Shown piece by piece: positions 2,110 through 34,010 of a stretch of 36,933 nucleotides of DNA. The DNA is taken from the NCBI GenBank assembly GCA_946630405.1, contig CAMOYW010000001.1, positions 1 to 36,933 of the forward strand, read 5' to 3'. This stretch comes from an uncultured Clostridia bacterium. GTDB lineage: Bacteria > Bacillota > Clostridia > Lachnospirales > CAG-274. Each line of letters begins with the position of its first letter. The first letter of the stretch is position 1. Under the pieces are notes generated by a model. That model ran no database searches. It worked only from the letters and a program-made list of their open reading frames with translations, and had not been told where the DNA came from. A program made the translations under genes and the position numbers.

Positions 2110-3144
2110 TTATTTTTCCTCCTTGTATTTAAGTGTGTCTATCGGTTTGCCTACCGTTGAATACTTATCTAACAACCCGTCAGCTTCCAAAGCCTTTTCG
2201 TTGTACTTCCTGCGTCCAGGGGTGCGTGTAACATACCACTTACCGTAAACGGCGTGATTATCGCTCTCTGTCAGATTACTTACTAATTTTTCCTTGATTG
2301 CCACCTTCAAAGCATCTAACCTTTTCACATCTGCACCGATCTTTTCTTCGAGTTCCATTTGTGAAACGGATATTTTAAGAATAAGCTCGTCGGCTTCTTT
2401 TGTCAACGCTTCAAGGTCAACATCGTCGGAAATGTAATTAGTCCGTAACTCTTTGATAATGTCCTTATCAGCATCGGTGTAATCCGGTGAGATACCCTTT
2501 AACACCTGCTCATTCCAAAAACGGGTAGCATCTGCAAGCATACCGTCAAAGTCAGGGTAACGCTCATGTACCTTGAATTCCACCGTAACCGTATTCTCTG
2601 CGGAAGGTACGAACTTGTCAGGGTGAGAATAGTCGCTCTCTTTAAGGAACGAGCATACCATAATGACATTCTCCGTACCGAGCAGGTAGGCATATAACGC
2701 CGCCTGAAGTGCGTAGTATTCGGGAACATCATTCTTCCAATCTTCCGCACGCTTTGTGGTCTTGAACTCCAATACAGTTTCGGGCTTCTCGTTATCGTCT
2801 ACGAGAATACTATCCCACATACCGCCGAATATCGGATTGCTCTTGAAGAAGTCGCCGTGTGTCTTATTGAAGAAGTCCTCACCGAATACATCAGTAGGTG
2901 TACGCAGGTTATCCATAACATACATTTCCTTCATATACTCAATCTGCTTCGGCTCGATTGTCTTACCTGCGATAGTGTAAATGGAATCCTCGAACGGTTC
3001 TTCGTAAACCTTCGTCATTTCACACCACACCTTAAAGGGTGTATTCCACCTATTCATTCCGAGCACCGCCCCGAATCTCGTACCCGTCAGCTTCTTTGTA
3101 CGCTTCGGGGGATCTACCTCTATGTGATTATCTACAAACTTCAT
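2110..3144 (-). CDS. YqaJ/lambda-Exo-like PD-(D/E)XK recombination exonuclease with C-terminal coiled-coil extension
   Basis: 344 aa. The N-terminus LTGTRFGAVLGMNRWNTPFKVW is typical of YqaJ-type nucleases. The LEFKTTKR motif (ExK) is present. It overlaps the upstream pol-ERF gene by 4 nt. Confidence 0.75.
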   Translation of the reverse strand: MKFVDNHIEVDPPKRTKKLTGTRFGAVLGMNRWNTPFKVWCEMTKVYEEPFEDSIYTIAGKTIEPKQIEYMKEMYVMDNLRTPTDVFGEDFFNKTHGDFFKSNPIFGGMWDSILVDDNEKPETVLEFKTTKRAEDWKNDVPEYYALQAALYAYLLGTENVIMVCSFLKESDYSHPDKFVPSAENTVTVEFKVHERYPDFDGMLADATRFWNEQVLKGISPDYTDADKDIIKELRTNYISDDVDLEALTKEADELILKISVSQMELEEKIGADVKRLDALKVAIKEKLVSNLTESDNHAVYGKWYVTRTPGRRKYNEKALEADGLLDKYSTVGKPIDTLKYKEEK

Positions 3145-5711
3145 GCGTCTACCTCCGACGGCATATTAGCCTTCTCCCACTCGTCGTAAGCCTTATTGCA
3201 AAGCTTAATGTACTTCTCGCAACCTGCCTTCGTTATATTAGTTAGGTTAGTAGTTTCCGTACCGATCTTTGCGATAACCTTTCTCAACTTCGTATCTTCG
3301 GTTTTGCCAAGCTTCTTCATAAGCTTCTTCAGCCCGCTAATCTGTAACTCGCTCGCATGCTCGTCAGCACCTACGATTTCTTTTGCCGTTTCTGCCCTCT
3401 CATTTGCCGTTAGAGGGGCTTTCGGTACGGAAACGGTAGTAGATACCTTTTCGTTGTTAGGAACGGTTGTAGGCTCAATCTCGTCGATTACACACAAGTC
3501 TAATGCGAGGTAGTAAAGATACCTACGAAGATAAGTGTGTGATGCACCCAAACTCTGCACCGGATTGATAGCTCTGTTCTCCGTCGGGTAACGCATCGGT
3601 GATGTAAACGATACATTTTCTTCAGGGTTATCCGTGTTGACAATGGTAAGCACCGCCAAATCTTCAGTAAATCTTACTACGCTGATAAGCCCGTACTCGT
3701 TGAACAGTTTAGTAACACGGGGTACGAAGTCCGAAAGCTCGAAGTATTCATACTGAATTGACGAATTCTTACCGCTCTGCTTCACGCTGCCGTCAAGGAT
3801 CTCCGCTCTAACCTTGTTAAGCTTCTGATATACATTCAGCTTCGAGTAGTCAGGGGCTTTCTTGACTTCGGGTGCAGGGGCTTCATTCTTGACCGTAGCC
3901 TTCTTTGTGGGAACGGCCTTCTTTTCTGCTTCCTTAATAGCGTCCATAATGGTTTCCTCCTTCTTAAACGCTTGTATTTTCTTATTTGCCATAGCAATAT
4001 AGAACGATTTATCTACATCACTTATTGCACAATGGTTATCATTGTCGATTACACAATGGTCGGGTATCGACGGTATCTTTATTCTCTGCTCGCCCTTCGT
4101 CTTGTAGAGTGTTCCGCAGGTCATATCACTTGTGGCATAGACACGGTTACACTTCTGTACCTGGATTTCTGCTCCGTCCTTGATATAAACCGCTCCGTCA
4201 AACTTCGAGCTTGCCCTTGCGATAAACTGAAATTTCTTTATGTCGTCGCAAGCGTTGATGTATTCAGCAGGATCTACACCGTGTACTAAATTCTCGACAA
4301 TAGCTTCTGCTACGACTACCGCATCGTTGTTTACCTTGAACTGTCCTACGGTAGATATACCCCTTACGAGATCGCCACCCTTCGTCTTAATGCTTCCGTC
4401 CGGCTCTACCCAAATGTAGTTATTCACATCTTTTTGGTGAAGCTCTTTGATGTTATCGACTTCGAGGGTGAAGCCCGTTCTCTCCTGCCACTCTTTGAGG
4501 ATTGCATCTACGGCTTCCTTCTGCTCCGCATCTATCTCGTACATAACACCGTCGGTATTAAGCTGCACGATAACAAGTCCTGGAATGTCCTTGTAAAGAT
4601 GCTCTGCAAGCTCCAAAAGGTATAATTGTCCGTCCATACATACCGAATGTGCCATGAGGGGATCGTAAAGGTCATTAAACGGTGCTCCTGATGCTCCGTA
4701 TGTCGTATTGACAATCAGCTTCAAAGCATTAGCCGTAGCCTTATCTCCTGCCTTCTTCGCCTTCATACGAGTTTCTAATATGTCCTCGAATATCTTGTAA
4801 GACGGGATATTCCTTGAAAGATGCTTCTTCAATGACATATCGTGAGGGTAAAAGCTTCCCACATCAGCATCAAACAAAAGCCTTCCGTTACCTTCCTTGA
4901 ACTCGTATTGAGGGATAGCGGCATGAATACCGCCCCACGCTACTTTGACCGGACAATCTCCGATAAAGAAGTCATAGCACTTCTCTTTAGGATCGTAGGT
5001 TTCCGCATTGTCGATAGCTTCCTGAAAGAAGTCTACTACACCCTGCGGTATGTACTCGTAAATAACATCGGAAGGGAATGTAAGGCAAAACTCGTCGTTA
5101 TGCTCCGCTCCGTTTGCTTTAAGCATCTTTGCCGTCAACTGTGCGTTAGTCAAAGCGGAAGCATCTAACTTCTCCATACCTGCAAGGTCGCCTACCTTTA
5201 CCTTGTTAGCAAAGTAATCTGTACGCAGGTCGTAGATAGCAAGGGCTGCATCTACATCGTGCCTGCAATACTTGATCGTTTCCTTAATCTGCTTCTTCGT
5301 CAGCTTCTTCGGATAATCGAACGGTATTGAACTCTCTACGATGTTCATATACAGATGCCCTTCAAGCCCCTTCAACGAAGTCGGGTAAGCATCGAGGTAA
5401 ACATCTATGTTATTCAGCTTAAAGCCGCCAGGTGCGAAGTCAGGGTACTTCCAAGCCGGATTACCTGCGATAATCCAATCATTCAACGCCTTCAATTCTT
5501 CAGGTGAGAAGCCCTCGATTACACCACGCATAATCCACTTATCGTAGGAATTAGTGTTGTAGCCGATAAATACATTCTCCTTATCGTCAAACAGTTCCTT
5601 GACCGCATCGTTATCGTTGACTATATCAAGCCACTTACCCGTTGCCTTATTCTTAAAGCACACAAGCCAATCGTGTGCAAAAACTTCAAAATCATAACCC
5701 CAAAGCCTCAT
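3141..5711 (-). CDS. Family-B-like DNA polymerase (3'-5' exo + pol) fused to an ERF-type single-strand annealing domain
   Basis: A single 856-aa frame. Exonuclease motifs: ExoI YDFE, ExoII YNTNSYD, ExoIII YCRHDVD. Polymerase motifs: A DADVGSFYP, B KLIVNTTYG, C QLNTDG. Residues ~623-745 are ERF-like: KQSGKNSSIQYEYFELSDF and LGASHTYLRRYLYYLALDL, compared from memory with P22 Erf FGKYKYRSCEDI and GATSSYARKYCL. Confidence 0.8.
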   Translation of the reverse strand: MRLWGYDFEVFAHDWLVCFKNKATGKWLDIVNDNDAVKELFDDKENVFIGYNTNSYDKWIMRGVIEGFSPEELKALNDWIIAGNPAWKYPDFAPGGFKLNNIDVYLDAYPTSLKGLEGHLYMNIVESSIPFDYPKKLTKKQIKETIKYCRHDVDAALAIYDLRTDYFANKVKVGDLAGMEKLDASALTNAQLTAKMLKANGAEHNDEFCLTFPSDVIYEYIPQGVVDFFQEAIDNAETYDPKEKCYDFFIGDCPVKVAWGGIHAAIPQYEFKEGNGRLLFDADVGSFYPHDMSLKKHLSRNIPSYKIFEDILETRMKAKKAGDKATANALKLIVNTTYGASGAPFNDLYDPLMAHSVCMDGQLYLLELAEHLYKDIPGLVIVQLNTDGVMYEIDAEQKEAVDAILKEWQERTGFTLEVDNIKELHQKDVNNYIWVEPDGSIKTKGGDLVRGISTVGQFKVNNDAVVVAEAIVENLVHGVDPAEYINACDDIKKFQFIARASSKFDGAVYIKDGAEIQVQKCNRVYATSDMTCGTLYKTKGEQRIKIPSIPDHCVIDNDNHCAISDVDKSFYIAMANKKIQAFKKEETIMDAIKEAEKKAVPTKKATVKNEAPAPEVKKAPDYSKLNVYQKLNKVRAEILDGSVKQSGKNSSIQYEYFELSDFVPRVTKLFNEYGLISVVRFTEDLAVLTIVNTDNPEENVSFTSPMRYPTENRAINPVQSLGASHTYLRRYLYYLALDLCVIDEIEPTTVPNNEKVSTTVSVPKAPLTANERAETAKEIVGADEHASELQISGLKKLMKKLGKTEDTKLRKVIAKIGTETTNLTNITKAGCEKYIKLCNKAYDEWEKANMPSEVDA

Positions 5712-5724
5712 TGTAATCCTCCAA

Positions 5725-7092
5725 TCATGTATAAATTTCGCAGCCTATCTTCCGATAGATCCTCAATCGCCGTTTGAAGCACTTTTGAGCGTATATAGTG
5801 TTATCCACAAAGTCATAACACCTTGCATCGGTCTTTTCTTCGTGAACTCTCGCTATCCTTCCGATAGCCTGCTCAATCACGGCTGAATCTCGATGTGGTG
5901 TCAGCATATACAACCTGGATAGTCGTGGTATGTCTAATCCCTCTTTTGCGAGATTGTAGGAAGCAAAAAGAATGTTAGCTCTGCCTTCCCTCATATCTTC
6001 GAGTGACGCCTGCCGTACTTCTCGCTTTGTCTTTCCGGTTATCACCCTTGCATCTTCTCTACCTATCATTTTGAATAAGGCTTCCGATTGAGATAACCTA
6101 TCCGTCAGCACTAATGTCGGGTGCGTTTCGTATGCGAGCATACTTGCAGCTATGTTATTTCGATGCACATTTTCAGCAAGGTAAGTGATGTACTTTGTGT
6201 AAACCATAGTGCCGTCAGCATCAAGAAAACAATCGTTGTAGCCTACATTCGTATAGATCGCTTCCACGCTCACGGGCATTACCTGATGCTCTATATCTTC
6301 AAACGGTACTTCGTAGGTTACATTACCCAAAATAGCGAATGTAGCACCTATCATACCGTCTGCACGATGTACCGTAGCGGATAACCCGTACTTGTATGGA
6401 GCTGCAAGGGTGTTTACTACTTTGTAGAACATACCAACCGATGTAGCCGAAGTGCATACACGGTGGCACTCGTCCACGATAACTATGTCGAAGTAGTTTT
6501 TGTAGCGTTCAAGCCCTGCAAAGTTAGCCATAGTCTGTACGGTAGCAAAAGTGATACCGTTGCCTATCTTCACTCTACCTTCGGTGCTCACCGTCAGCAG
6601 GCTCTTATCGAGATACTTCTTCGCCTGCGTATAAGCCTGGTCTACGAGATCCTTCGTATGAGCAAGCCACAAGGCTTTTCTCCCTCGCCTTGCTATCATA
6701 GCAATACCCATTATTGTCTTACCTGAAGCCGGACGGCTCTGTAAGATGCCGTAAGGGTGTCGAAGCATATTTGTTACCGCTTTCTCCTGATACCCTCGAA
6801 GCTCTAATGTGGATTTATAGTCAACCCTGGGCTGAAATTTCAGCCACGAATAACAGTTATCCTTCCGCATGAAGCCTTGAAGTGCGTACATATAACCGAA
6901 CGGTACATATACATAATCGTCGCCTTCTTCACGATACAAGCAAATCTCACGGGGTACATTACCCGTCCACTTACCCATACGCTTACGGTTTACATAATCA
7001 GGGTTAGCAAAAGTCAGATCCCGCTTAATTGCCTTGAGCACTTCAGGTGTCGGATATGAGATTTTGATTTCATTGTCTATTGTAAAGAACAT
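5725..7092 (-). CDS. Superfamily-2 DNA helicase (DEAD/DEAH-like, DECH box)
   Basis: 455 aa. It has LRGYQEKAV, Walker A RPASGKT and motif II IVIVDECH, plus a C-terminal helicase lobe (LFASYNLAKEGLDIP, QAIGRIAR). Confidence 0.85.
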   Translation of the reverse strand: MFFTIDNEIKISYPTPEVLKAIKRDLTFANPDYVNRKRMGKWTGNVPREICLYREEGDDYVYVPFGYMYALQGFMRKDNCYSWLKFQPRVDYKSTLELRGYQEKAVTNMLRHPYGILQSRPASGKTIMGIAMIARRGRKALWLAHTKDLVDQAYTQAKKYLDKSLLTVSTEGRVKIGNGITFATVQTMANFAGLERYKNYFDIVIVDECHRVCTSATSVGMFYKVVNTLAAPYKYGLSATVHRADGMIGATFAILGNVTYEVPFEDIEHQVMPVSVEAIYTNVGYNDCFLDADGTMVYTKYITYLAENVHRNNIAASMLAYETHPTLVLTDRLSQSEALFKMIGREDARVITGKTKREVRQASLEDMREGRANILFASYNLAKEGLDIPRLSRLYMLTPHRDSAVIEQAIGRIARVHEEKTDARCYDFVDNTIYAQKCFKRRLRIYRKIGCEIYT

Positions 7093-7496
7093 TAGAATAT
7101 CTCCCTAAATGTGAATGAACACTCTTTGATAGCTTCCGAATTCAGACTACGAACATTGTTATCAAGGCAATTACAGATAGTCTTAAACGGTATGAAGTAA
7201 ACTTCTTCTTCGTCCGGTAACTGAAGTGCAAAGAACGCTTCGTGTTGTGTTCTTTCAAGCCACCTGCTCATGGATAAGAACTGATTTTCTTCAACTCTCG
7301 TAAGCGGAAAACGGCCTGATTTGCAATCCTTTGCATCTATGATAAAAGCATCTACGCCTTTAACGGCTATCAGGTCGCACGGCTGCCCCGCCTGATTCTG
7401 CTGAAACAGATGTACCCAATATCCGTTCTCGTAAAACAAGTCCTTCAGCTTGACTTCAAACTCCGTACCTTCATTCTTATTACTGTTCGCTCGCAT
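7092..7496 (-). CDS. RecU-like Holliday junction resolvase
   Basis: The ORF track starts at 7673, but that N-terminus overlaps the upstream Cys-rich ORF. The internal ATG at 7496 (MRANSNKNEGTEFE...) is the likely start. The RecU-like pattern is GTEFE...CDLIAVKGVDAFIIDAKDCKSGRFPLTRVEENQ. Confidence 0.6.
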   Translation of the reverse strand: MRANSNKNEGTEFEVKLKDLFYENGYWVHLFQQNQAGQPCDLIAVKGVDAFIIDAKDCKSGRFPLTRVEENQFLSMSRWLERTQHEAFFALQLPDEEEVYFIPFKTICNCLDNNVRSLNSEAIKECSFTFREIF

Positions 7497-7695
7497 CGTG
7501 ATCTCCGTACTGTATGTAGTGGCTTTTGAATGGATAAGCCCTCTTATTCTGTTCAAACTGTTCTTCCGTAACCCTAAACGGGCAATCCTCATAGCTTGCC
7601 GGAAACGGCTTTGCTTCGGGTTTAAGGCATACGCACTCGTCTTTGTAGCCCTTAAAGTGGCAAGGCTTGTCAAATCTACAAATAAACATCTGCAT
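7480..7695 (-). CDS. Small Cys-rich protein
   Basis: MQMFICRFDKPCHFKGYKDECVCLKPE...CPF. Its ATG at 7695 overlaps the TGA of the upstream gene by 1 nt (TGATG). Confidence 0.5.
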   Translation of the reverse strand: MQMFICRFDKPCHFKGYKDECVCLKPEAKPFPASYEDCPFRVTEEQFEQNKRAYPFKSHYIQYGDHDASEQ

Positions 7696-8079: not shown

Positions 8080-8194
8080 ACTCTCTCCCTTCAAGGTCGT
8101 TATTCTTTGATACCGCTAACAACGCAAGGCAAAACATACCCATTACCATTCCTACGGCTAAACCTACAAATAATCCGACAATAAATTCATTCAT
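8060..8194 (-). CDS. Small hydrophobic membrane protein
   Basis: MNEFIVGLFVGLAVGMVMGMFCLALLAVSKNNDLEGREYEETEE. Its ATG at 8194 overlaps the lipoprotein stop (ATGAATGA), which suggests translational coupling. Confidence 0.5.
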   Translation of the reverse strand: MNEFIVGLFVGLAVGMVMGMFCLALLAVSKNNDLEGREYEETEE

Positions 8195-8732
8195 AAACGA
8201 TAAATACCTCATGCTTCTGTGATCCGTATTCATTCGCTGCATCGTGGCTCTCGAAGTACAAATCTACGATTTTTCCCTTGACCGCACTTCCCGTATCTTC
8301 GCAGCGATAATATTGCCCGTCGATGTAAAGTAAAGTGCCAAGTGGTATTACGGAAGGATCTACGGCACAAGTGGTTTCTCCGTCTTTGTCGTAGTGAACT
8401 TTCGTGCCTGATGCCGTGATACCTTCAGCGTTAGCTCCACAACACTTCGTGCAAGCACAATATCCGGTGCAAGTGAATGTACCTAACGATTCCATAGCAG
8501 GTGTAGGCGTGGGGGAAGGTGTCGGTGTAGGCGACGGTGTAGGTGTTGGTGTCGGGGTTGCCGTAGGCGTGGGCGTAGCGGTAGGCGTAGGTGTTACTAT
8601 CTCCTGCGGTACTATCTCGCTCTCCGTTTCATTTGTGGAACACGCCGACAAAAATAAAAACCCCGATACGGCTATACCCAGGATAGCTACGATATTGAAG
8701 ATGCCCATAAGCTTAAACAATCTGTCAAACAT
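8187..8732 (-). CDS. Secreted lipoprotein with Pro/Thr linker and C-terminal 3D (RlpA/MltA-like double-psi beta-barrel) domain
   Basis: 181 aa. The signal peptide carries a lipobox (FLFLSAC). It is followed by a (TP/SP)n linker and a 3D-domain-like core: FTCTGYCACTKCCG...GITASGTK...CAVDPSVIPLGT...YRCEDTGSAVKGKIVDLYF. Confidence 0.75.
   Translation of the reverse strand: MFDRLFKLMGIFNIVAILGIAVSGFLFLSACSTNETESEIVPQEIVTPTPTATPTPTATPTPTPTPSPTPTPSPTPTPAMESLGTFTCTGYCACTKCCGANAEGITASGTKVHYDKDGETTCAVDPSVIPLGTLLYIDGQYYRCEDTGSAVKGKIVDLYFESHDAANEYGSQKHEVFIVYE
8500..8595. repeat. Low-complexity GGTGTAGGC-type repeat encoding the PT/PS linker
   Basis: The plus strand shows ggtgtaggcgt/ggtgtcggtgt-type iterations. 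These translate on the minus strand to TPTPTATPTPTATPTPTPTPSPTPTPSPTPTP. Confidence 0.85.
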
Positions 8733-9961: not shown

Positions 9962-10303
9962 ATGATTAAGAAGGTCGACACATTAGCAAATAGGCTATCT
10001 TACGCTATGAAGATGCAAAATGTAGGTGTTTGCGAATTGGAACGATCAAGCGGTGTAGCGAAGGGTTTAATATCAAGGTACATCAACGGTCTAAAATTTC
10101 CAAAAGACAATAACATCAACCGCCTATCCAAAGCCCTTCATGTGAACCCTGAATGGCTAAAAGGCTACGATGTACCGATTGCAGCTACACCCGTCAGCGT
10201 TACCACCGACGAAGAACGGTTGCTCGCCTACTATCGTGCCTTAACCGCTATTCAGAAAGAAGCTTTGCTCGATAAACTTACGGGGGATAACGAAGATGCC
10301 TAA
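9962..10303 (+). CDS. cI-like XRE-family repressor (no S24 peptidase domain)
   Basis: 113 aa. The HTH is MQNVGVCELERSSGVAKGLISRYINGLKFPKDNNINRLSKALHVNPEWL. It is divergent from the cro-like gene, with AAGGGGGTG upstream. Confidence 0.8.
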   Translation: MIKKVDTLANRLSYAMKMQNVGVCELERSSGVAKGLISRYINGLKFPKDNNINRLSKALHVNPEWLKGYDVPIAATPVSVTTDEERLLAYYRALTAIQKEALLDKLTGDNEDA

Positions 10304-11393
10304 AGCTTATTATGACGATGCACGGAAGCGGTGGGTTATTGATGGTCAAAAGGACGGTGTGAGAAAAATCTTCACATCTACGAAGAAGGGATTATCAGGA
10401 AAGCGAGAAGTCATATCCAAGTACGAAGCGTGGCGTGATTATGGCGGTGATAACCCTGCTCCTATCACCGTAGAAAAGGCCGTAGAGCTTTTCCTTGAAG
10501 ATGTATGTACCCGATATGGTAAAGATAGCGAAAGCTATCGTGGAGCGGAAATATACACCCGTGTATACATACTCCCTGCCTTTAGACACAAAGCAATAGC
10601 AAGTGTGAAGCTATCTGATTGGCAATCGCTTATAAACCACGCTAAACCGCACTCTAACCAAACAGAAGTGCTATCGAAGAAAACCCTTAAAAATCTCCGA
10701 TCCGTAATCAATCGACTTCAGAAGTATTGCTATAACAATTACTATACTGAAGCGTGGCGTGGTGAACTCTACATACCCGAAGGACACCCGACAATCGGTA
10801 AGGAAATTCTGCAACCTGCGGATATTCAGCGACTATTTGAACCGTCTAACCTATGGTATCACCCTTGCTTCCTTGTAATGATGCTATGTGGGCTTCGCCC
10901 AGGTGAATGTTTAGGCTTGCAAGTGGACGATATAAAAGACGGCATAATCCATGTCAGACGGGCTATAAACGATTCTAACCAAATAACTCACGGTAAGAAC
11001 CGGAACGCTATTCGTGATATACCTGCTCCGAAGCAGGCATTAGAGATTATCAATAAAACGATTGAGCGTAACAAATCTTGCGGATTGCAAACCAAGTGGA
11101 TATTCTGCGGATATTCGGGTGAACACGGTAATCAATCCACCTTGCGTACACAATGGTACATCTTGAAGCGTGAACGGGATCTCCCAGGTTGCCCGTATGC
11201 ACTCCGTCATACATTCGTATCTATCGTATCTGCTCAATCCCACATATCGGAAGGTAATCTGAAGATGCTATTAGGACACTCGAAGTCTATGGATACTTAC
11301 GGTGTCTACAATCATAGCGTAGACGGTGAATTGCAGAAAACGGCTGCCGTGATTGATACAACCTTCGAGAAAATAAGAAAAGCCGCACCGTGA
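10296..11393 (+). CDS. int: Tyrosine site-specific integrase
   Basis: 365 aa. Catalytic-region signatures are present: GLRPGECLGL (Arg I), YALRHTFVS (HxxR) and LLGHSKSMDTYGVYNH (His and Tyr). Its start overlaps the cI-like stop by 8 nt. Confidence 0.92.
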   Translation: MPKAYYDDARKRWVIDGQKDGVRKIFTSTKKGLSGKREVISKYEAWRDYGGDNPAPITVEKAVELFLEDVCTRYGKDSESYRGAEIYTRVYILPAFRHKAIASVKLSDWQSLINHAKPHSNQTEVLSKKTLKNLRSVINRLQKYCYNNYYTEAWRGELYIPEGHPTIGKEILQPADIQRLFEPSNLWYHPCFLVMMLCGLRPGECLGLQVDDIKDGIIHVRRAINDSNQITHGKNRNAIRDIPAPKQALEIINKTIERNKSCGLQTKWIFCGYSGEHGNQSTLRTQWYILKRERDLPGCPYALRHTFVSIVSAQSHISEGNLKMLLGHSKSMDTYGVYNHSVDGELQKTAAVIDTTFEKIRKAAP

Positions 11394-32474: not shown

Positions 32475-32601
32475 GTTTTGCTCCTCCTACCTGGTATAAT
32501 TCACCGTTGATTATTACTTCTACATTATAGCCGGCGGTGATAGCATCTTCTATTACTCGCGTGATTTCTTCGACGGTGTAAACCTTGTTATTATATATCA
32601 T
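32467..32601 (-). CDS. 44-aa protein (below the ORF-track cutoff)
   Basis: Hand translation gives MIYNNKVYTVEEITRVIEDAITAGYNVEVIINGELYQVGGAKHD. Its ATG overlaps the clamp-like gene's TGA (ATGA). Confidence 0.45.
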   Translation of the reverse strand: MIYNNKVYTVEEITRVIEDAITAGYNVEVIINGELYQVGGAKHD

Positions 32602-34010
32602 GCGGTAATACCTCCATTTTGAATTGTATACACGGCGGCTATCAACTCGACACCTGAATTATAAATGTGCCCGCGTGCTTTTTGCATCTGATTTATCATA
32701 TCTTTGTGCTCGCGTGCGTATGCTTCCGAGTAATCAACGGCGGCGGGTGTCGGTGTATAATTGCGCTTTTTAAGTGCTACTATCATGCACGCGGTTTTGT
32801 ATACTGCATTATATATCGCTTCAGGGATAGCAGGCGCGGCGGGTGTATTGCCGGCGGTATCTTCTACCGCTTCAGGCGTGCTCGTATCGGGTGCAGTGTC
32901 CGGTGTAGGATCTTCAGCAGCAACGGGCGCGGGTGCTTCCGTGATGTTATCGGGCGCGGTATCTTCTACCGGTGCGGGTGCGTCCTGGATTACTTCAGCA
33001 GGTGCGGCGGGCTTTACCTTGTTAATAATATCTTCTACCTCGTACGGAGTAAACCTAATAGGCAATACAAGCGAATTATAGCCGGTGGCGGTGCTATCTG
33101 TAAAAATGATAGGAGCGGCCGTTTTATTATCTTCAAAATTGATTGTATCAGCGCCGCCTTTTAAGGCCGTGTATACATATTCCGGATTTAGTGCAACGGT
33201 AAAAATATACTCGTTATCGTTACCGGTGATGTTAAACTCTTTGTAACCGCCTACCGTGCTACTATCGAAGGCAACGATTAAACGATTGCCGGATAGCTTA
33301 AACAGGAGCGGCGCGGGCCTATATTTGTTATCAGGATCTTTAAGGCCGCGCATAGCATCAACGAATGATAGCAGCTCCTTGTTATCGAATGTTATACCGC
33401 GGCGGGTGCTATTAGTATTATAAATTGCTTCAAGGTTTATAAAATTGCCCGCGAGTAATCGCGCATAAAATACCGCGCCGGTGTCCGATGTGATACGGGC
33501 GTACTTTTCACCCGCTTCGATTGTTACGGCCTTTTTAAGCCCTCCAAACGCAAGCACGGCCGCCGGTATATTTATACTAACATCGCGCGCGGTGTCGATC
33601 TGGTAACGAGTAGCGCGAAAACCGTCGCACGCTTCAATATAACCGCCGCCAATATGTAAACCGGTTAAAATAGGGCGGGTGGTGTCTTTGCTCGCATAGT
33701 TTGCAATATGCTTTAGGATAGATACATCAACAGTACAAACGGGCGCGAACTCGTCAACGGGTAAATCATAGCAATCTGTATTAGTGGCAATCTCACCGCC
33801 GGCAAAAATGCCTGATTTACTTGTATAATCCAAGGCGGCGGGGGTGTATGTTTTGCCGGTATCCTGTAAAGCTGCTTCTACTTCAGCGGTGAAAAGTATT
33901 GATGCGTCGTCATTAAATGCGACTATAGCACCGGCGGGCGTAATGTATGCCGGTATCATGCTCTTCTTTGTGATCTTCTTAGCGATCTTTGCAACTTCTG
34001 TATTTTTCAT
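32598..34010 (-). CDS. DnaN-like sliding-clamp homologue with Pro/Ala/Thr-rich linker and extra C-terminal helical domain
   Basis: 470 aa. Clamp-like landmarks appear in the correct order and spacing: TTRPILTGLHI...ACDGFRAT (cf. ATDGHRLA), LLAGNFINLEAIY (cf. GxFPDY), ALNPEYVYTALKG (cf. FNxxYLxDxL) and SLVLPIRF (cf. VVMPMRL). Then comes PAAPAEVIQDAPAPVEDTAPD... and a ~70-aa tail. Confidence 0.6.
   Translation of the reverse strand: MKNTEVAKIAKKITKKSMIPAYITPAGAIVAFNDDASILFTAEVEAALQDTGKTYTPAALDYTSKSGIFAGGEIATNTDCYDLPVDEFAPVCTVDVSILKHIANYASKDTTRPILTGLHIGGGYIEACDGFRATRYQIDTARDVSINIPAAVLAFGGLKKAVTIEAGEKYARITSDTGAVFYARLLAGNFINLEAIYNTNSTRRGITFDNKELLSFVDAMRGLKDPDNKYRPAPLLFKLSGNRLIVAFDSSTVGGYKEFNITGNDNEYIFTVALNPEYVYTALKGGADTINFEDNKTAAPIIFTDSTATGYNSLVLPIRFTPYEVEDIINKVKPAAPAEVIQDAPAPVEDTAPDNITEAPAPVAAEDPTPDTAPDTSTPEAVEDTAGNTPAAPAIPEAIYNAVYKTACMIVALKKRNYTPTPAAVDYSEAYAREHKDMINQMQKARGHIYNSGVELIAAVYTIQNGGITA

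Follow-up and report, generated by a model that had tools for sequence, protein, structure and literature searches.

Background

It is debated how phage annealases (Erf, Redβ, RecT, Sak) tie in with DNA synthesis, including whether they act at replication forks, during recombination-dependent replication and when the genome is circularised, and which polymerase extends the annealed ends. In the Exo+SSAP recombinases that serve as model systems (lambda Redα/Redβ, RecE/RecT and SPP1 G34.1P/G35P), the polymerase is a separate and usually a host enzyme. Annealing or ssDNA-binding proteins are physically linked to the viral replicative polymerase in the case of T7 gp2.5 with gp5 and of HSV-1 ICP8 with UL30/UL42. 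Furthermore, T7 gene 4 (4A/4B) and E. coli dnaX (tau/gamma) are nested in-frame genes from which the larger and the smaller subunit of an oligomer are made, dnaX by frameshifting and with no internal start. Known members of the ERF family are stand-alone proteins of approximately 200-270 aa; P22 Erf forms rings and its homologue Gp77 of SECΦ27 (PDB 9y6u) is a 24-mer (PMC13017515). In Firmicute phages an SSAP together with an SSB is needed for replication (PMC5499656). The endolysins CTP1L and LysIME-EF1 of Clostridium and Enterococcus phages are each expressed from one gene as the full-length protein and its C-terminal domain, which co-assemble (PMC4777826, PMC7098653). Here we describe a phage locus in which an ERF-type annealase and a DNA polymerase are encoded by one frame.

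Results and Discussion

Within the window, i.e. the whole stretch of 36,933 nucleotides that was analysed, a single unbroken ATG-initiated frame of 856 codons occupies positions 3141-5711 of the minus strand, on which all features given below are located. The encoded protein, Pol-ERF, consists of a family-B polymerase (aa 1-585), a disordered linker and a complete ERF-type annealase. Full-length homologues sharing 46-99% identity with it fall into more than 120 protein clusters, every one of 820-856 aa, with dozens of further representatives at 50% clustering, and the homologue alignments show no change in the catalytic residues of either half. The unbroken pol-erf fusion was found in 82 of 163 related loci, derived from independent metagenomes and from cultured isolates (Criibacterium, Catenibacterium, Dorea, Lacrimispora, Adlercreutzia and Peptostreptococcus), with fused prophages in cultured Clostridia and Coriobacteriia. 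Pol-ERF is a genuine conserved phage gene. The reading that two genes are merged here through an error in sequencing or assembly, or in a decaying pseudogene, is effectively refuted, as the same in-frame junction recurs in the 82 loci and every catalytic residue is intact, and we give it practically no credence; nothing in its favour was found. Frameshifts do occur in a few related MAG loci (L047, L059, L077, L104, L109 and L137) and lie elsewhere in pol. The databases label Pol-ERF proteins only as “DNA polymerase” or “hypothetical protein”, which is an annotation gap, and no published description of the architecture was found in the searchable literature, in line with an earlier note on this DNA that had not recognised it as a described one.

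The polymerase half matched the PHROG 1252 family “DNA polymerase” over aa 2-587 (E=2.5e-145), and AF2 modelled aa 1-585 with confidence (pLDDT ~90). The 3'-5' proofreading exonuclease domain (approximately aa 1-200; 5112-5711; pLDDT >90) was scored against the templates DxE, Nx3(F/Y)D and Yx3D for Exo I, II and III, and the corresponding residues D7/E9, N52/Y56/D57 and Y148/D152 are invariant across 73 homologues. The family-B palm, fingers and thumb (approximately aa 201-585; 3957-5111) were compared with the templates DxxSLYP, Kx3NSxYG and DTDS; motif A reads D283-V-G-S-F-Y-P, motif B reads K331-L-I-V-N-T-T-Y-G and aligns to E. coli Pol II, and motif C is a variant, N385-T-D387-G, in which the second, metal-binding Asp is retained and the first is Asn throughout the family. 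All three motifs are invariant in 73 homologues, and a K444-G-G motif is also present. Foldseek matched aa 1-585 to archaeal family-B polymerases (5mdn, KOD, 9°N) with E~1e-16 and probability 1.0. Pfam DNA_pol_B_2 scored 17 bits on Pol-ERF, below its cutoff of 25.8, and the NCBIfam Pol II models matched the motif-B region only, far under their cutoffs. The Pol-ERF polymerase is a divergent family-B subfamily and, to judge from the motifs and the model, its polymerase half appears to be an intact replicative proofreading enzyme.

The linker (aa 586-626; 3834-3956) comprises about 40 residues, is rich in Lys, Ala and Pro and is predicted to be disordered (AF2 pLDDT <50 at aa 587-619); in the alignment both its length and its sequence differ between homologues. 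It leads into the ERF annealase core (aa 627-739; 3495-3833), which carries the motif G722-x3-T-Y-x-R-R-Y-L-Y and which Pfam ERF (PF04404) matched at 30.0 bits against a gathering cutoff of 25 (E=6e-7). Moreover, aa 576-841 matched PHROG 155 “Erf-like ssDNA annealing protein” (E=4e-22), and the ERF part also matched PHROG 2324 (E=8e-10), “Essential recombination function protein” entries of BFVD (E~1e-8) and, by profile, the solved homologue Gp77 (E=0.004). A PDB fold search with the ERF module alone gave nothing significant, the top match being Mgm101 (E=0.23). In the AF2 model the core has a predicted alpha-beta-beta-beta-alpha topology, with helices at 627-642, 662-672 and 717-736 and three strands at 675-705, which fits a Rad52-like core, in which a helix crosses a three-stranded sheet. 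The helical C-terminal domain (aa 769-849; 3165-3407; AF2 pLDDT ~80-87), kept in fused and split ERFs according to a “tail” HMM, is presumed by analogy to be partner-binding, and ring formation and ssDNA annealing are predicted for the ERF part from its family.

Immediately downstream lies the gene for a YqaJ/lambda-Exo/RecE-like 5'-3' exonuclease (2110-3144; Pfam YqaJ 37 bits against a cutoff of 22, E=3.9e-9; PHROG 434, E=2e-30; TIGR03033), to which Pol-ERF is coupled by the overlap of its stop with the exonuclease ATG as ATGA (3141-3144). The next gene (1586-2107) encodes an SSB-like protein (173 aa) whose C-terminal tail is acidic (DEDFDIDSFLNGEE) and whose identity as an SSB is weaker than that of the exonuclease (PHROG 378, E=3e-4; no Pfam match). 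Of the 82 fused loci, 76 have the exonuclease downstream and 71 the SSB-like gene; of the 54 split loci, 49 and 46 do, respectively. The two genes are found with erf at about 90% of the loci, fused or split, but at only about 20% of the pol-only loci. Further genes of the operon encode a conserved protein of 81 aa found in close relatives (1336-1581; no family match in Pfam or PHROG) and a primase with an archaeo-eukaryotic-type N-terminal domain and PriCT-1 (556-1332; PHROG 1829, E=1.8e-42; Pfam PriCT_1, E=1.8e-5). Directly upstream of Pol-ERF, and in the same operon, is an SF2 helicase (5725-7092; ResIII/Helicase_C by Pfam and PHROG), conserved in 60 of the 82 fused loci. The operon also includes a RecU-like Holliday-junction resolvase (7092-7673; Pfam RecU, E=6e-8; PHROG 843, E=3e-15). 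The three-part architecture proposed in the earlier note is thus borne out by the PHROG and Pfam matches and the AF2 model, its coordinates being correct to within a few codons; the ERF-family match of the C-terminal part is significant, the suggested Exo+SSAP pair is confirmed by the YqaJ and PHROG 434 matches beside ERF, and the SSB-like neighbour holds on a weak match.

In a sister clade of 54 loci, pol and erf are separate, adjacent and translationally coupled genes, and the pol stop sits between the SD and the ATG of erf, e.g. TTGGAGGTATAAAT followed by ATG. This position points to stop-codon loss, by which the fusion would have been derived from an adjacent pair of pol and erf. Within the fused frame of the window, an internal Shine-Dalgarno AAGGAGG (3956-3962), which encodes Lys-Glu-Glu, is followed after 8 nt by an in-frame ATG (3945-3947; Met589), so that the signal spans 3962-3945 at the domain boundary. 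This predicted start opens a nested ERF frame of 268 aa (3141-3947), the counterpart of the separate erf in split relatives, whose free-standing ERFs begin at a Met homologous to Met589. SD cores were scored at a spacing of 5-11 nt from the ATG, with the other in-frame ATGs of the same ORFs as the control. Of the 73 distinct fused junctions, 60 had a core of at least 5 nt, against 25 of 1281 control ATGs (2%), statistics that overstate the significance since related loci are not independent samples; 51 of the 73 junctions hold the full AGGAGG and 71 an in-frame boundary ATG. Each of the three codon phases is represented among the motifs (Arg-Arg, Gly-Gly, Lys-Glu-x), a sign that it is the RNA and not the peptide that is selected, and SD and ATG are also retained within the clade of the window's own gene. 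In addition, the mRNA is less structured around the boundary ATG (median z=+1.47), although the purine-rich linker could account for this. Judged by this sequence conservation, the SD and ATG of erf look to be under selection inside the fused frame.

The earlier note had seen the annealase as tethered to the polymerase. The fusion is real, but since the ribosome-binding site and start codon of erf are kept inside the ORF, free ERF is very probably also made, and the locus probably yields both Pol-ERF and free ERF. The obligate single fusion implied by the earlier note, with the 856-aa protein as the only product, a polymerase on every ERF subunit and the internal SD and ATG as a relic or a pause site, would agree with the unbroken, conserved frame and with the 13 of 73 junctions in which the SD is weak or absent (a 4-nt core only, or no boundary ATG). 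We nevertheless consider it quite improbable: a relic would decay, whereas the SD hexamer and the ATG are kept at canonical spacing in a hypervariable linker, whatever the codon phase, and a ring with a 68-kDa polymerase on each subunit would be sterically demanding, to judge from the P22 Erf rings and the Gp77 24-mer.

As to whether relatives are fused or split, both hold, with 82 loci fused and the same genes unfused in 54. Close relatives carry both genes unfused; the fusion is one of two interchangeable states and not an obligatory design, and at least six changes between these states are required on the pol tree. Split forms are plentiful and as successful as fused ones, thus the covalent tether is not needed for the function of the module. 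Furthermore, in other lineages PHROG 1252-type polymerases are fused to different downstream neighbours (Toprim, VapE primase-helicase), and in one locus (L124) an unrelated upstream ORF continues into erf, which is compatible with run-on fusions being tolerated and not selected. On such an account the pol stop was lost in tightly packed coupled genes, free ERF, made from the SD and ATG that erf retains, does all the annealing, and the polymerase functions as usual while trailing an ERF domain, the covalent link having no function of its own. This account deserves more weight than an obligate fusion, yet we still regard it as unlikely. The frame is open in more than 80 independent loci, isolates included, and across a clade whose members drop to approximately 35-50% identity with the window protein, although about 6% of single-base changes in the pre-ATG linker of some 16 codons would give a stop; the main fused clade contains only one split leaf; and repeated fusion to neighbours is a classical sign of physical interaction, not of indifference. 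The sequence comparisons also show the fusion to be old.

The explanation that we favour, and hold as a whole to be moderately probable, combines a stop-loss fusion, two products, mixed ERF rings and coupled annealing and synthesis. Translation of one mRNA would yield the 856-aa Pol-ERF and, from Met589, a free ERF of 268 aa. Since large homo-oligomeric rings are typical of the ERF family, these products may co-assemble into rings built mostly of free ERF with one or a few polymerase-bearing subunits. The YqaJ exonuclease would resect DNA ends, ERF, aided by the SSB-like protein, would then anneal the 3' tails to complementary single strands, perhaps the terminally redundant ends of a headful-packaged genome or ssDNA at a fork, and the tethered polymerase would extend or gap-fill the annealed 3' end in place. 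Annealing would in this way be coupled to synthesis for genome circularisation and recombination-dependent concatemer replication. That recombination and DNA synthesis are physically linked is probable from the fused frame, and a physical coupling of annealing to synthesis may reasonably be inferred from the fusion. More tentatively, the single gene could encode a self-assembling “annealing-primed replisome”, in which internal initiation would determine how much free ERF is made per Pol-ERF, and each annealase ring, bearing one or a few replicative polymerases, would pass the annealed 3' end straight to a polymerase. If so, recombination-dependent replication and genome circularisation would have a machine of their own, and the fusion would count as natural “Rosetta-stone” evidence that SSAPs work in a physical complex with the replicative polymerase.

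The polymerase-annealase fusion is conserved over hundreds of gut-Firmicute phages and prophages. Together with the split sister clade, the conserved covalent fusion provides natural evidence suggesting that the two proteins work as a complex, and the fused and unfused versions offer a matched pair of natural systems for comparison. Moreover, the conserved internal start is a testable case of stoichiometry control by a nested gene in a replication protein. Gut anaerobes are hard to engineer, and the self-contained Pol-ERF/Exo/SSB cassette from prophages of Clostridia, Erysipelotrichaceae and Coriobacteriia might also serve as a basis for developing recombineering tools for them.

Comparison with known systems

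Pol-ERF resembles the ERF family in its above-threshold Pfam ERF domain, the shared G-x3-T-Y-x-R-R-Y core motif and a predicted Rad52-like core that is followed by a separate C-terminal domain. Its gene, moreover, adjoins an SSB-like gene in a phage whose P22-type small terminase implies headful packaging. Unlike the stand-alone ERFs, its frame runs upstream without a stop into a DNA polymerase of 588 residues. With the Exo+SSAP recombinases the locus shares an adjacent, co-oriented YqaJ/lambda-Exo-type nuclease and annealase, but the annealase is of the ERF family and not Redβ/RecT, the gene order is SSAP followed by Exo, and the SSAP forms one polypeptide with the replicative polymerase of the phage. 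As in the SPP1 genes for recombination-dependent replication, an SSB, a Holliday-junction resolvase and a helicase are found in the same module (PMC3485210).

Known counterparts of the polymerase half are the stand-alone PHROG 1252 family-B polymerases of Firmicute siphoviruses (Enterococcus Efquatrovirus-type phages, Bacillus phage BMBtp15, Paenibacillus phage Wanderer), which have approximately 560-590 aa, show 31-37% identity over aa 2-587, carry the same motifs and have a primase gene nearby. None of the 1158 matching INPHARED records extends over the ERF part, and, in contrast to the present locus, in most of these phages no erf-exo-ssb cassette follows pol. The contacts of T7 gp2.5 with gp5 and of HSV-1 ICP8 with UL30/UL42 differ from Pol-ERF in being non-covalent and in involving unrelated protein families. 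With the nested endolysin genes the locus shares an internal SD and ATG at a domain boundary within a longer ORF and a short product that is a self-associating C-terminal module, such that mixed oligomers would bear fewer N-terminal enzymes; for Pol-ERF, however, both products are predictions, and they pair a DNA polymerase as the enzyme with an annealase as the module that would oligomerise.

The polymerase-ERF gene lies in the replication operon of a temperate phage

The polymerase-ERF protein (Pol-ERF) is encoded by a single ATG-initiated open reading frame of 856 codons on the minus strand (3141-5711), in agreement with the uninterrupted frame claimed in the earlier note, which had been made from the sequence alone. 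The neighbours named there were likewise recovered: a YqaJ/lambda-Exo-type exonuclease gene (exo, 2110-3144) adjoins Pol-ERF, its ATG overlapping the Pol-ERF stop codon (ATGA), and a 173-aa SSB-like protein with an acidic, aromatic C-terminal tail is encoded at 1586-2107. The surrounding leftward operon is tightly packed and further encodes, on the minus strand, a RecU-like resolvase (7092-7673), an SF2 helicase (5725-7092), a primase with a PriCT-1 domain (556-1332) and, between the SSB-like and primase genes, an 81-aa protein with no assigned function. Outside this operon, the window is the genome of a temperate phage of siphovirus type, with genes for an integrase, endolysin, tape measure, major head protein, portal, large terminase and P22-type small terminase. 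The window has no terminal repeat and no gene across its ends, it lacks the D5-like helicase known in the related locus L164, megablast against phage genomes gave zero matches, and neither the Rfam scan nor the tRNA scan of the window returned a hit.

The tyrosine integrase (10296-11393, plus strand) is the main plus-strand gene and lies mid-window in an otherwise leftward genome. Pointing away from it is a promoter-like site, TTGACT-17-TATTAT (9891-9863, minus strand), which could be a candidate driver of the entire early/replication operon; promoter-like sites overall were no commoner than in shuffled sequence. Also encoded in the early operon is a 181-aa protein (8187-8732, minus strand) that has a hydrophobic segment at its N terminus and a 3D domain (Pfam PF06725) at its C terminus, with a long low-complexity (Thr/Ser-Pro)n linker between them. 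This layout suggests that the protein acts on peptidoglycan, and it is kept in close relatives. A 470-aa protein (32598-34010, minus strand) is similar to bacterial DnaN, the beta sliding clamp, over domains II-III of the latter, and carries an additional C-terminal extension of about 150 aa. Its matches (TIGR00663, E=4e-8, under the cutoff of that model; PDB 2avt, E=0.009; PHROG 947 'processivity factor') indicate that it could be a processivity factor for the phage PolB. As a conserved partner, the clamp-like gene was rejected, since it was not found in the sequence flanking the related loci, whether fused or split.

A divergent family B polymerase is joined to an ERF annealing module

The polymerase assignment of the N-terminal part was borne out by a match of aa 2-587 to PHROG 1252 'DNA polymerase' (E=2.5e-145). 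In the AlphaFold2 model of Pol-ERF (mean pLDDT 81) aa 1-585 are confident, and Foldseek placed the polymerase model with archaeal family-B polymerases (E~1e-16). Since curated Pfam and NCBIfam polymerase models scored under their thresholds while PHROG 1252 and the fold matched, we regard the protein as a member of a divergent PolB subfamily. Among 73 full-length homologues no variation is seen in the three motifs of the proofreading exonuclease or in polymerase motifs A, B and C, and motif B aligns with that of E. coli Pol II. Motif C (residues 385-388; 4548-4559, minus strand) has N-T-D-G in place of the canonical D-T-D-S, so that the first acidic residue is replaced by Asn, and this form is invariant family-wide among the fused proteins. 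In several relatives inserts of 0.04-0.95 kb break the polymerase gene in the neighbourhood of motif A, at about residues 285-300 (L101:2692-3189, L130:3782-4733 and L131:7873-8282; also L085, L132 and L136). ORFs of 141-259 aa are present in some of the inserts, which may represent introns, mobile insertions of another kind or, in MAGs, assembly errors.

The linker is predicted to be disordered (aa 587-619, AlphaFold2). Beyond it, the proposed ERF domain was recognised by Pfam ERF (aa 627-739, 30 bits against a gathering score of 25) and by PHROG 155 'Erf-like ssDNA annealing protein' (aa 576-841, E=4e-22), and a profile of the module found the solved ERF homologue Gp77 of phage SECΦ27 (PDB 9y6u, E=0.004). 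Structural support for the ERF part is mixed: a BFVD search returned 'Essential recombination function protein' entries (E~1e-8). The predicted order of helix, helix, three strands and long helix is that expected of the Rad52/ERF core; the AlphaFold2 model of the module, built on a 20-sequence alignment, had a pLDDT of only 69. Because the ERF module by itself drew no significant match in a fold search of the PDB (best hit the Rad52 homologue Mgm101, E=0.23), ERF membership rests on the profile hits, BFVD and Gp77. A word-indexed protein search with the ERF part alone gave only 20 matches, mainly fragments, and is uninformative on free-standing relatives. The helical tail described from the sequence was also predicted, as a C-terminal helical bundle (aa 769-849, AlphaFold2) that comes after a second disordered stretch. 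By profile HMM this C-terminal domain is kept in fused and split forms, and, judging from other SSAPs, it probably binds the exonuclease or SSB.

The fusion is widespread among uncultured and isolate genomes

To classify the architecture, we took 160 related loci from IMG/VR and one-genome-per-species GTDB contigs, added the window and two phage records, and sorted them by polymerase and ERF profile HMMs into 82 fused loci, 54 split loci, in which pol and erf are adjacent but distinct ORFs, and 27 with pol only. The open junction shared by 82 loci, isolate genomes included, rules out an assembly artefact or a pseudogene; the possibility of an indel in the linker, for which the earlier note had proposed read support, was thus settled by comparative data. 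Cultured isolates with the fusion include Criibacterium bergeronii, Catenibacterium mitsuokai DSM 15897, Dorea ammoniilytica, Lacrimispora defluvii, L. saccharolytica, Adlercreutzia mucosicola DSM 19490 and Peptostreptococcus spp. A large protein search yielded at least 120 clusters of 46-99% identity, all 820-856 aa long with 97-100% query coverage, and an exhaustive search of a 50%-clustered set found 6,533 relatives, among them dozens of representatives that contain the whole fusion. In cultured phages the polymerase occurs only as a stand-alone protein (31-37% identity), and none of the 1,158 matching records of the deposited-phage collection covers the ERF part. In public databases the protein is named 'DNA polymerase' (DAZ01028.1; UniProt A0A8S5V6E6) or 'hypothetical protein', and no NCBIfam model names the architecture.

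Ten loci with this Firmicute-type phage module (L090, L097, L099, L103, L104, L110, L114, L122, L126, L131) lie on contigs binned to Bacteroidaceae, Parabacteroides, Prevotella, Treponemataceae, Kiritimatiellae or Succinivibrionaceae MAGs. These contigs are mostly 10-61 kb, although L103 lies on a 628-kb Prevotella contig, and the shortness of most suggests that phage contigs were binned wrongly and that the host range is not really so wide.

A conserved, probable translation start lies inside the fused gene

On the minus strand of the window, the Shine-Dalgarno (SD) sequence AAGGAGG (3962-3956) stands 8 nt before an in-frame ATG (3947-3945, Met589), exactly where the polymerase match stops and the ERF match starts; the peptide IQAFKKEETIMDAIK is an example spanning this junction. 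We compared 73 non-identical fused junctions, 71 of them with an in-frame boundary ATG, with 1,281 other in-frame ATGs of the same ORFs. An SD core of at least 5 nt at a spacing of 5-11 nt was present at 60 of the 73 boundaries and at 25 of the 1,281 other ATGs, and the full AGGAGG at 51 and 4, respectively. In the window's own clade, outside the fetched loci, the motif is AGGAGG in L164, AAGGAG in L165 and L166 and a weaker GGGAG in L163. Across the fused junctions the motif is found in each of the three codon phases, where it is translated as Arg-Arg, Gly-Gly or Lys-Glu-x, and the neighbouring linker residues vary freely, as selection on an RNA signal and not on the peptide would give. Predicted mRNA structure is weaker at the boundary ATG than elsewhere in the same ORFs (median z +1.47); this ATG falls in the least-structured decile in 62% of loci, to which the purine-rich linker composition could contribute. 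Free-standing ERF products start at the homologous Met ('MATTTK…'). The sequence evidence thus indicates that a free ERF of 268 aa is very probably translated from inside the fused ORF, in addition to the fusion of 856 aa. A single product, the fusion, as the earlier note had implied, fits poorly with the conserved initiation signal and appears quite improbable. The architecture described in the note is confirmed, and its interpretation is supported in part and extended. An internal promoter for erf was also rejected, as no promoter-like site was found upstream of Met589 and the overall frequency of such sites was no higher than in shuffled sequence.

In one locus (L124:4305-6047) an unrelated upstream ORF, whose S-Y-G-K-D-S motif recalls PAPS-reductase-like proteins yet which has no Pfam hit, enters erf in frame through a KEETQM junction (AAGGAGG…ATG), so the erf start can sit within more than one kind of upstream gene.

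Fused and split genes differ by a stop codon

In split loci, pol ends a few bases ahead of the erf ATG, its stop lying between the SD and the start of erf (in L048, TTGGAGGTATAAAT followed by ATG), and in L033, L039, L041 and L098 one in-frame stop parts the two genes; the fused genes are therefore the same gene pair minus the stop. A neighbour-joining tree of the polymerase domain placed the pol-only loci as outgroup to one large fused group and one large split group, and is compatible with change in either direction. It contains at least 6 state changes overall, so that fusion or fission took place a few times and each state is stable in the long term. Exo is present in 76/82 fused and 49/54 split loci and in only 6/27 pol-only loci; the erf-exo-ssb cassette travels with the polymerase. 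Programmed −1 frameshifting restoring the fusion in split relatives was rejected: ERF is often in the −1 frame, yet no overlap has an in-phase slippery heptamer. Also rejected was a 274-aa gene between pol and exo of Eggerthella phage EL753P1 as an unfused ERF (no detectable similarity, no family hit). Ten split loci (L074, L075, L080, L102, L105, L107, L125, L126, L139, L148) have inserts of 0.3-1.1 kb between pol and erf, most with ORFs of 129-346 aa; a Pfam scan of seven ORFs, six from these inserts and that of L124, gave no significant hit.

Whether the covalent link itself matters is a separate question. The success of split relatives, the unrelated ORF running into erf in L124 across the same kind of SD and ATG, and other fusions of the same polymerase family (pol-DUF3991-Toprim, 1055 aa; pol-primase/VapE helicase, 1239 aa; cytosine-C5 methylase-pol-ERF with the methylase N-terminal, 1154-1158 aa; P0182, P0232, P0122 and UniProt A0A8S5V6E6) show that run-on fusions are at least easily tolerated. 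A functionally neutral run-on is the serious remaining rival, although we consider it rather unlikely, since the fused state persists among members down to about 35-50% identity with the window protein and the main fused group contains only one split leaf. The linker before the ATG has a mean of 16 codons, in which about 6% of single-base changes would give a stop and thereby recreate the split arrangement; by this rough argument, the persistence of the fused state suggests that the open frame is under selection.

Proposed mechanism and comparison with known systems

ERF-family proteins form large rings, such as the 24-mer of Gp77 and the rings of P22 Erf (PMC13017515). If the ring-forming core is shared, Pol-ERF and free ERF should therefore co-assemble, and we propose rings mainly of free ERF in which a few polymerases would be tethered on linkers of about 40 residues. 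The exonuclease would resect ends, ERF and the SSB-like protein would anneal complementary strands, and the tethered polymerase would extend or gap-fill the annealed 3' end. A small terminase of the P22 type implies that the genome is packaged by the headful mechanism and is terminally redundant, so circularisation by annealing, which has been proposed for P22 Erf, would be one obvious use. Recombination-dependent concatemer replication may be a second, a reading prompted by the co-operonic resolvase, helicase and primase and by the need for SSAP and SSB in staphylococcal phage replication (PMC5499656).

As far as we found, no polymerase-ERF fusion has been described, our coverage of the literature being incomplete and an earlier mention possible. 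An AlphaFold survey of 10,280 SSAPs never uses the words 'polymerase', 'fusion' or 'fused' (PMC11783212), and the fusion is absent also from a polyvalent-protein survey, the RAZR/Gp77 paper (PMC13017515) and the Sak/Sak4 paper (PMC5499656). Thus a widespread architecture of known parts has gone unremarked, and the two-product mechanism that we infer for it from sequence is specific and testable. It parallels endolysins of Firmicute phages, in which an internal start yields extra C-terminal domains for co-assembly with the full-length enzyme (PMC4777826, PMC7098653). Both domains and the principle of a nested gene are known, and their combination is, as far as can be told, new.
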